From a virus, in UHGV virus genome UHGV-0165227: 34,611 nt of DNA; one strand, written 5' to 3'. Both the position numbers and the translations under genes were made by a program. The notes below the pieces were generated by a model, which did no database searches, was not told where the DNA came from, and saw only the letters and a program-made list of their open reading frames with translations. Shown here one piece after another: positions 18,969 through 20,194 of this stretch (within the stretch, counting starts at the first letter, position 1; the number at the start of each line of letters is the position of its first letter).

Positions 18969-19481
18969 TTAAACGGTATGATATTTCATTCTGGCTGCCT
19001 CAAAAGCCGCAGCGGCAAGTTCGGCAGTGTCATGGTATCCAAGGTTAATACACTTTCCAGACGCATTAATTCTTGCTCTCCATTTCCCGTACTTAGCATC
19101 CCAAGACACGCCACGGTATCCAGATTTATTATTCTTCTGAATTTTCCTGTTTTGCATATTTTCGGAATGAGTGACAAGACGAAGATTTGATATCCGGTTA
19201 TCTGTTCTTACCCTGTTGATGTGATCAATAAAACCATCGGGCATGGTGCCATAAACAATCAACCATGCCAGTCTGTGAGCAGGGTATGCTTTACCATTAA
19301 TCATAATCATTAAATACCCATCAGAATTTATTGATGAGCATTTCTTGAAAGCAAAACGAGAGTTCCATGTCAAAGTGGTCCTCTCTCTCCCCTGCCTCCA
19401 TCTCCAGTGAAAGTCGCCTGACGATGGATTGTAATCAACAACAGAAAGCACCATTTCTGGCGTTAATTTTATTTCTTTCAT
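18969..19481 (-). CDS. HNH homing endonuclease with AP2-type DNA-binding domain
   Basis: HNH motif DHINRVRTDNRISNLRLVTHSENMQN and AP2-like GYRGVSWDAKYGKWRARI; AAGGT RBS; sits between tR'-like terminator and late leader. Confidence 0.8.
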   Translation of the reverse strand: MKEIKLTPEMVLSVVDYNPSSGDFHWRWRQGRERTTLTWNSRFAFKKCSSINSDGYLMIMINGKAYPAHRLAWLIVYGTMPDGFIDHINRVRTDNRISNLRLVTHSENMQNRKIQKNNKSGYRGVSWDAKYGKWRARINASGKCINLGYHDTAELAAAAFEAARMKYHTV

Positions 19482-19603
19482 CGCTTTACCTTAGGGATAG
19501 AGCCTGTTCGCGTAGATATGACAGCCAAGAGCGGAGCGATGTTTCCACCACCATATCTCAGGCCCATATCACTAAGACTCTTGTTTTGATTGCACGCGAA
19601 TGC

Positions 19604-19628
19604 AAAAAAGCCCACAGGAGGTGGGCTT
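19604..19628 (-). terminator. Intrinsic terminator downstream of late promoter (tR'-like)
   Basis: Minus-strand GCCCAC-CTCCT-GTGGGC followed by TTTTTT. Confidence 0.6.
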
Positions 19629-19668
19629 GTGATGGTTGCTGAATGCAAAAGCAGCAGCATATGTGAAT

Positions 19669-19698
19669 ATTATGGCTAAATGGCTAATTGCATGTCAA
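19669..19698 (-). promoter_or_regulatory. Candidate late promoter pR' overlapping the 3' end of Q
   Basis: Minus-strand TTGACA (19698..19693), 18-nt spacer, CATAAT (19674..19669). Confidence 0.5.
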
Positions 19699-20194
19699 GG
19701 TTTTTAACAGCAACATGCTTAACTTTCTCAACACGTTTACGCATTTTGAAAGCATTTTGCATTGGCTGGTACAAAACAAATAATGACGCTTTCAGGATGT
19801 CGTCAATTTCGTTTCTACAGGTTGCCAGTGAAGGTTTTCTCCATCCCTCGCCACCACGTCCACACATCTTGCGTGGCTTTGCAGTCGCGTGATAGTAGGA
19901 TGCAATTGCTCGCTTAGATGAACCATGAGCGTAGTAGCTGAGGAGGATGCCAAAGGCTTTCTTGTCAATGTACATGACGGAATCGACGACCTGAGAAATC
20001 AACATTCCATCATCATCATTGCACATTGGCCTTGTCATAACTCTTCCCGGCTCTACGCTCTCCATGAACTTCGCTATTACGCTGCTCATGCGCTTTTCCA
20101 GACGACCTGAATAAACCCATGCGCCCCACAGTTCAAGCCAGCCATTCAGCCACTCATGCTGTTCTTTGGTGAGGTTTAGTTCTCTTATGCCCAC
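19676..20194 (-). CDS. Q: Late-gene antiterminator Q (Phage_antitermQ family)
   Basis: LELWGAW...RPMCNDDD...LLSYY pattern as in DLP12 QuuD-type Q; GTG start with GGGAGAAGG RBS; directly upstream of late promoter. Confidence 0.7.

Follow-up and report, generated by a model that had tools for sequence, protein, structure and literature searches.

The Q antiterminator of phage 21 (21Q) has a Q-binding element (QBE) that consists of two 6-bp direct repeats, TGAGCA, located between the −35 and −10 elements (phage 21 studies). The C:G pairs at positions −21 and −13 are required for phage 21 antitermination, and five residues of 21Q (H95, A124, R127, R128, and R113) read the bases of the element. 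Early in the transcribed region of phage 21, a −10-like element gives rise to a sigma-dependent pause, and it is there that Q loads. The annotated leader of phage 21 is ∼50 nt long. For Salmonella phage L, a variant QBE with the same repeat pair as in the locus described below has already been proposed, together with a likely change in specificity, and Q proteins of this kind have been classed as "type 3" antiterminators (bioRxiv 10.1101/2020.10.05.325894).

Here, we compare with these systems a promoter-terminator unit that overlaps the 3′ end of the Q gene in a 34,611-nt viral genome (UHGV-0165227, the whole of which is referred to as the window). We are highly confident that the unit is the late-gene regulatory cassette (pR′, Q-utilization site, and tR′) of a lambdoid Escherichia coli prophage of the phage 21 type ("type 3"). 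A homolog of 21Q is encoded directly upstream of the unit and on the same strand, and late genes lie 3′ of the unit, also on that strand. This work shows which sequence elements are present, how they are spaced and conserved, and that Q is homologous to 21Q; the start site, the pausing, the binding of Q, and the read-through are inferred from the biochemistry and structures of phage 21. Coordinates of all features are collected in Table 1.

Table 1. Features of the predicted late-gene control region and its surroundings, with positions in the window
Feature	Position	Strand	Evidence and remarks
Q antiterminator gene, phage 21 type, 172 aa, GTG start	19676-20194	minus	Pfam PF06530; PHROG 943; identity to 21Q; PDB
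−35 hexamer TTGACA	19693-19698	minus	Consensus scan; same hexamer in phage 21, Sf6, yong1, and 126 of 126 surveyed sites
Candidate QBE subsite 1, TTAGCC	19682-19687	minus	Fifth base C19683 at −21; direct repeat of subsite 2
Candidate QBE subsite 2, TTAGCC	19674-19679	minus	Fifth base C19675 at −13; contains the Q stop codon TAG (19678-19676)
−10 hexamer CATAAT	19669-19674	minus	Consensus scan; part of the annotated pR′ in Sf6
Predicted +1, A19662	19662	minus	Inferred: 7 nt past −10, which places the C residues of the QBE at −21 and −13, as in 21PR′
−10-like pause element TATGCT (+2 to +7), predicted to be sigma dependent	19656-19661	minus	Position of TAAGCT in phages 21, Sf6, and L
Predicted 5′ hairpin of the leader (+4 to +26), includes the 3′ half of the pause element	19637-19659	minus	Minimum-free-energy fold; same in yong1 (predicted)
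Intrinsic terminator, first tR′: 8-bp stem, 5-nt loop, six U	19604-19628	minus	Fold; annotated as a rho-independent terminator in HK629
HNH-AP2 homing-type endonuclease gene, within the late leader and between two terminators	18969-19481	minus	Pfam HNH_3 (2e−18) and AP2 (2e−8); PHROG 99
Displaced 21-type leader	18919-18963	minus	Relic pause element TAAGCT (18963-18958); homolog of tR′21 (stem 18962-18924, U-run 18925-18919)
First late genes: holin S, endolysin R, and Rz	18191-18514, 17731-18207, and 17267-17734	minus	Open reading frames; Pfam holin family; HK629 homologs

Comparison with described late control regions

The cassette shares with phage 21 a Q protein of 83% identity, the −35 hexamer TTGACA, direct repeats within the spacer whose C residues lie at −21 and −13, a −10-like element at +2 to +7, and a short leader. 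However, the repeats are TTAGCC in the window and TGAGCA in phage 21, and the window Q carries R95 and N128 instead of H95 and R128, as well as a 10-aa C-terminal tail. The promoter spacer is 18 nt long in the window and 17 nt long in phage 21, and the −10 hexamer is the better CATAAT instead of AACACT. The first terminator of the window is also a hairpin other than that of phage 21, with an extra 5′ hairpin ahead of it, while the 21-type terminator is displaced ∼700 bp downstream.

As the 21PR′ reference for these comparisons, we used the sequence of the structural work and IMG/VR loci in place of the phage 21 record AJ237660. That record was rejected because it is one base short in the QBE (TGAGCAAGTAGCAA versus GCAAATGAGCAACA of the structural work and the IMG/VR loci). 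At its positions 1472-1495, it reads TGAGCAAGTAGCAA, and the structural studies and IMG/VR loci read TGAGCAAATGAGCAA. The Q coding sequence of the record also has a short frameshifted stretch, with AHGL instead of GAWVY. Both deviations, in the QBE and in Q, are probably sequencing errors in an old record.

Shigella phage Sf6 (gene 59) and Salmonella phage L (gene 23) have the same Q allele as the window and, base for base from −35 to −10, the same promoter and QBE. In the Sf6 record, this promoter carries the annotation P R′, a qut site and a terminator of the late leader come after it, and the description reads "similar to phage 21." The two phages differ from the window in what comes next: a 21-type leader (TAAGCT and tR′21) follows their promoter directly and precedes tRNA genes, whereas in the window the promoter leads into an alternative leader and an HNH gene, and tRNA genes are lacking. 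The most similar record is that of Escherichia phage HK629 (JQ182735), with 99 to 99.7% identity over Q, the promoter, the leader, the HNH gene, and the second terminator. In this record, Q is labeled "late gene regulator Q," the hairpin is marked as a rho-independent terminator, and the HNH endonuclease is annotated as well. HK629 differs in QBE subsite 1, which is TTATCC and not TTAGCC.

The original prediction held that the unit defines the Q-utilization region of a non-lambda Q. With a Q so close to 21Q and a promoter identical to pR′ of Sf6, the region does appear to be a Q-utilization site, of the phage 21 type; nothing new is defined by it, however, given that the QBE variant had already been inferred for phage L and the terminator annotated in HK629. 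The kind of element, the promoter/QBE allele, and the terminator are all already on record. What novelty is left is small, namely, the exchange of leaders at a fixed spacing and the presence of an endonuclease gene between two terminators. The use of the result is mainly in annotation, as it places pR′, a candidate Q site, a pause element, and tR′ in this prophage.

The Q protein and its candidate binding element

The window Q matches the Pfam family Phage_antitermQ (PF06530; 1e−25) and PHROG 943 (3e−93), and its PDB matches are 21Q entries only (6JNX/6JNY and 6P18-6P1C; ∼1e−92). The Q proteins of lambda and P22 belong to a family unrelated to it, and a Pfam search found no lambda-type Q domain in the window. 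We had considered P22 gene 23 as the closest model, but P22 has a lambda-type Q and qut, and this model was dropped.

Two TTAGCC direct repeats, 8 bp apart, lie between −35 and −10, which in its geometry is the layout of a 21-type QBE. The repeats do not have the TGAGCA sequence that membership in the specificity group of phage 21 would entail. Differences are found in the protein as well: two of the five base-reading residues of 21Q are replaced in the window Q (H95R and R128N), and the backbone contacts S93, K94, and T125 are unchanged. We found that the QBE covaries with Q. The pair TGAGCA/TGAGCA occurs with SS[K/R]H...ATCRRE (21 type), TGAACA/TGAGCA with SSRY...STCRRE (the type of Hafnia phage yong1), and TTAGCC or TTATCC/TTAGCC with SSKR...ATCRNE (window type), so that H95/R128 is paired with TGAGCA and R95/N128 with TTAGCC. 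By this pattern in the sequences, the window Q and its QBE represent a member of the 21 family with a probably different specificity. The TTAGCC/R95/N128 and TGAGCA/H95/R128 alleles form a natural pair suited to work on Q-DNA specificity.

We surveyed 80 IMG/VR loci that encode this Q, 54 contigs with the leader core, and phage records, which gave 126 sites. Subsite 2 is constant in the 120 surveyed sites with the window Q allele. The fourth base of subsite 1 (19684) is polymorphic, and TTAGCC and TTATCC are both found with both leader types (in L001, L019, and L093, among others); TTATCC is present in ∼25 of the 120 sites. A variable subsite 1 next to a constant subsite 2 is in line with the reported low affinity of the upstream subsite.

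The gene and the element overlap. The 3′ end of Q reads CTT GAC ATG CAA TTA GCC ATT TAG, and its stop codon lies within the spacer of pR′, one base ahead of the −10 hexamer. The final 10 codons of Q span the −35 hexamer and the first QBE repeat, and the stop codon falls in the second repeat. The C-terminal tail that the window Q has in comparison with 21Q (10 aa; positions 19676-19705, minus strand) is thus encoded by its own promoter, with the codons for L-D-M forming the −35 element and TTA GCC ATT TAG (L-A-I-stop) forming the two QBE repeats. The Q of locus L121 has a different C-terminal tail, which likewise ends in LAI.

The predicted late promoter

A near-consensus promoter (TTGACA, an 18-nt spacer, and CATAAT) had been predicted across the Q stop codon, and it is present there on the minus strand, with 11 of 12 bases matching the consensus (consensus scan). 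This candidate sigma-70 promoter at the 3′ end of Q is identical to pR′ of Sf6. The 11/12 match is unique in the 34.6-kb window, of which both strands were scanned. Because at least one such match is found somewhere in 36% of dinucleotide-preserving shuffles of the window, the consensus match on its own is not statistically significant. The non-randomness of the unit rests on its position at the 3′ end of Q, on a terminator no more than 60 nt away, and on conservation with late promoters of the phage 21 type.

The predicted start, A19662, is equivalent in a sequence comparison to the first A of the annotated "aRNA" of phage 21. The BTP1 transcriptome paper (PMC7067206) states nothing on the start of the late promoter.

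The candidate pause element, the leader, and the first terminator

The candidate pause element stands at a fixed distance from the QBE, as in phage 21. In every one of the 126 sites, 12 nt separate QBE subsite 2 from the pause element (the search pattern allowed 10 to 14 nt), and these sites cover four promoter/QBE alleles and two leader types.

An intrinsic terminator is predicted in the leader, ahead of the late genes. Its stem, AAGCCCAC/GTGGGCTT, occupies positions 19628-19608 with the loop CUCCU and is followed by a U-tract (19609-19604), two of whose six U residues lie within the stem; written out, the terminator is AAGCCCAC-CUCCU-GUGGGCUU and then more U. The hairpin has a folding energy of −12.5 kcal/mol (z = −3.3). 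For the full predicted leader, the value is −21.5 kcal/mol (z = −3.2), which was equaled in none of 200 shuffles. On the plus strand, the hairpin is not followed by a U-run, and therefore the terminator is one-directional.

Starting from A19662, the terminated leader RNA is predicted to be ∼57 to 61 nt long. Hence, the strong terminator announced by the original prediction at about 45 to 60 nt from the promoter is borne out, and so is the expectation of a leader far shorter than that of lambda. The lambda leader (6S RNA) is 194 nt long. Neither a Q homologous to that of lambda nor a leader of ∼194 nt is present in the window, where Q has 21-type matches only and a leader of ∼60 nt is predicted. 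Such a length is, however, ordinary outside lambda, and the annotated leader of P22 is likewise short (∼59 nt).

Among eight intact variants of the leader, the terminator stem is constant except for one G-C to G-U change. Four versions of the loop occur (CTCCT, CTCCC, TCCAT, and TCATC), and the linker varies too. No compensatory double changes in the stem were found among these eight variants. A constant stem with a variable loop fits selection on the terminator hairpin, a suggestion for which the support is conservation and not covariation.

An open reading frame of 60 codons (19478-19660, minus strand) begins with an ATG at +3 to +5 of the predicted transcript, would be nearly leaderless, and runs through the terminator. 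Its TGA overlaps the start codon of the HNH gene (ATGA). The frame is probably not a gene: its 60-aa product has no PHROGs family, and it is interrupted by a stop after nine codons in the yong1 variant.

Proposed mechanism of late gene control

By analogy with phage 21, we propose that sigma-70 RNA polymerase would initiate at pR′, probably at A19662, and would pause early, with a pause expected near +18, when sigma region 2 binds again at the −10-like TATGCT at +2 to +7. Without Q, transcription would end at 19628-19604, and an RNA of ∼60 nt would be released. Once Q has accumulated, two protomers would occupy the TTAGCC repeats, with C at −21 and −13, and Q would load onto the paused polymerase, allowing it to read through the terminator. 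The Q-modified polymerase would then cross the HNH gene as well as the second, phage 21-like terminator (18962-18919) and reach the genes for lysis and morphogenesis.

Exchange of leaders behind the late promoter

The window stretch was matched by megablast in 59 phage records. In Sf6, CUS-3, HK75, BTP1, and many P22-like Salmonella phages, the match ends at the last base of CATAAT. Across the survey, 84 sites have the window promoter, and it leads into the 21-type leader in 62 of them and into the window leader in 21 (including the window itself); the remaining contig is cut off. The 21-type (type-1) leader reads TAG..GG TAAGCT GCCGTTAG..., with a terminator stem that starts at +3. The window (type-2) leader reads ATTCACA TATGCT GCTGCTTTTGCATTCAGC... 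and has a 5′ hairpin and then the terminator.

The window type of leader is not confined to the window promoter. It is also found behind the true phage 21 promoter (L086, L110, L115, and L138), behind the yong1-type promoter (L005, L106, and L122), and behind a further promoter variant (L121). The junction between promoter and leader is always at about −6 to −1. In yong1 and L063, a leader of the window type is the sole terminator between Q and the holin gene. On this comparison of sequences, the transcribed part is an alternative leader module, present behind at least four Q/QBE alleles. The survey further indicates that two parts recombine as separate modules in 21-type phages: the promoter with the QBE, which stays together with its cognate Q, and the pause element with the terminator. 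The 12-nt spacing between the QBE and the pause element is held despite this exchange, in agreement with the geometry seen in the solved loading complex of Q21.

The HNH gene and the second terminator

The unit is not followed directly by late genes, as an HNH gene and a second terminator intervene. The late operon has the order pR′ with the QBE, pause element, terminator 1, HNH gene, relic pause element, terminator 2, S, R, and Rz. In its sequence, the HNH gene has the properties of a free-standing homing endonuclease, with an HNH and a DNA-binding domain and with presence and absence at one locus. HK629 is the only one among the phage records with a copy of >60% identity, and more distant relatives are the multicopy free-standing HNH genes of Xp10-like and Felix-O1-like phages. 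A scan of the minus strand from terminator 1 to the HNH start found no promoter-like site, and for this reason the gene is probably expressed only by Q-modified polymerase.

Five bases past the HNH stop codon, the sequence resumes as TAAGCTGCCGTTAGTGACTCTTAAGTTGCAACGGTGGCTTTTTTT (18963-18919), a 21-type pause element and tR′. Positions 18963-18914 are 100% identical to the phage 21 record over 50 nt, and Sf6, HK75, and others match as well. The fold of this second terminator has an energy of −20.2 kcal/mol (z = −4.1).

Three arrangements are found among close relatives. In one, the type-1 leader stands alone (HK75 and Sf6). In another, the type-2 leader is joined straight to the flank that is normally 3′ of tR′21 (L063, L086, and L103). 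The third is the double arrangement of the window, which is shared by HK629 and by 39 of 5,426 complete E. coli genomes. E. coli DETEC-E601 is an example of a strain whose prophage segment is identical. It is also shared by 17 of the 20 other loci with the window leader type, which match the window through the HNH gene; L063, L004, and L082 do not. Loci with the type-1 leader are without the HNH gene. Both terminators contain the sequence GGCTTTTTT, and a deletion between them could therefore yield the form in which the type-2 leader meets the flank directly.

Alternative explanations

Could the unit be nothing but a promoter-like match that happens to stand beside a terminator to which it is unrelated and unconnected in regulation? 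The frequency of 11/12 matches in the shuffled windows is compatible with such a coincidence, as is a terminator scan of a 6-kb region, in which the count of terminator-like sites was not above that of shuffles. Yet the promoter coincides in position with the 3′ end of a 21-type Q, is kept in ∼120 related loci with an invariant spacing between QBE and pause element, and is homologous to the experimentally studied 21PR′. A rough joint estimate puts at ∼1e−5 the chance that two specified 60-nt stretches of one strand contain such a promoter and a terminator, and we give practically no credence to a coincidence. A different late promoter is implied by the GenBank record of HK629, in which a hexamer ∼150 nt further downstream, past the terminator, is annotated as "putative late promoter pR′." If this were right, the true promoter would lie just ahead of the HNH gene (∼19516-19511 in the window), and the hairpin at 19628-19604 would only end the early-right/Q transcript. 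The annotated hexamer (2785-2790 in HK629, locus L001) reads TCTACG, however, and there are no promoter-like minus-strand site, direct repeats, or properly spaced −10-like element at that place. Moreover, the stretch with the hexamer is missing in phages that share this Q and this leader but lack the HNH gene (L063, L086, and yong1), and the hexamer therefore cannot be a general late promoter. Homology to 21PR′ places pR′ at the end of Q, in agreement with Sf6, L, and phage 21. A literature search on HK629 returned nothing on its late promoter. We consider a promoter ahead of the HNH gene highly improbable, and the HK629 annotation is probably a misannotation, to judge from these sequences.

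Other readings keep the promoter at the end of Q and assign the leader a further role. Terminated RNAs derived from pR′ can be Hfq-binding small RNAs, as exemplified by StxS, which is made from pR′ of Shiga toxin phages and acts in trans (PMC7547250). The terminated leader of ∼60 nt might, by analogy, also act in trans as a small regulatory RNA in lysogens, and its predicted structure, in which an unpaired linker of 8 nt separates a 5′ hairpin from a terminator hairpin that ends in a U-tail, would be in keeping with this role. The unpaired linker is not conserved, however (AACCAUCAC in the window and GUUCUAAUCU in the yong1-type variant), and no Rfam family matches the leader. A search of positions 18400-19800 against Rfam (E ≤ 1) gave no homology to a described small-RNA family and returned a single subthreshold match, to P9 on the opposite strand (E = 0.55), which we took as noise; a small-RNA role thus seems unlikely. 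Alternatively, the pause element, the hairpin, the terminator, a 180-nt spacer, and the HNH gene might form one mobile homing cassette that split a 21-type leader by inserting between the −10 hexamer and the pause element, with its own pause element and terminator preserving late control. Several observations are in line with an insertion of this kind: homology to Sf6 and the 21 type ends at −10 and resumes 5 nt past the HNH stop with the old TAAGCT and tR′21 intact, the neighboring gene is of the HNH_3 and AP2 homing type, and the HNH gene is polymorphic for presence and absence among near-identical loci. On the other hand, the same leader occurs without the HNH gene in yong1, L106, L122, L121, L063, and L086, and, therefore, it exists as an independent module. 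The arrangement is equally explicable by recombination between two leader types. We regard a homing cassette as possible but do not favor it. It is doubtful, more generally, that the ∼60-nt leader, which would be made constitutively from pR′ in lysogens, is an exchangeable module with a function of its own, be it a trans-acting small RNA or the front end of a homing cassette; if it were, such a function would account for the occurrence of this single leader with four or more different Q/QBE alleles. Our preferred reading remains that the unit is the late control cassette of a phage 21-type prophage, in which the leader provides the pause element and the terminator.

Variation in the flanks of related loci

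Between tR′ and the holin gene, the window (18515-18918, minus strand) carries no tRNA genes, and a tRNA search found none in the window as a whole; one or two are present at the corresponding place in Sf6, phage 21, and phage L. In L063, a tRNA-like remnant is found between tR′ and the holin gene.

In the contig represented by L082 and L091 (IMGVR_UViG_2537562173_000011), the type-2 leader is interrupted within the 5′ arm of the terminator stem, where unrelated sequence takes over. Judging by its sequence, the contig may be a rearranged or decayed prophage, with a pR′ that lacks termination. The PhiR12 phages (L004, PhiR12_1, positions 2688-2760) retain the promoter, the type-2 leader, and about the first 22 codons of the HNH gene, after which they continue with Stx-phage-like sequence. 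This switch is a recombination joint within the endonuclease gene.
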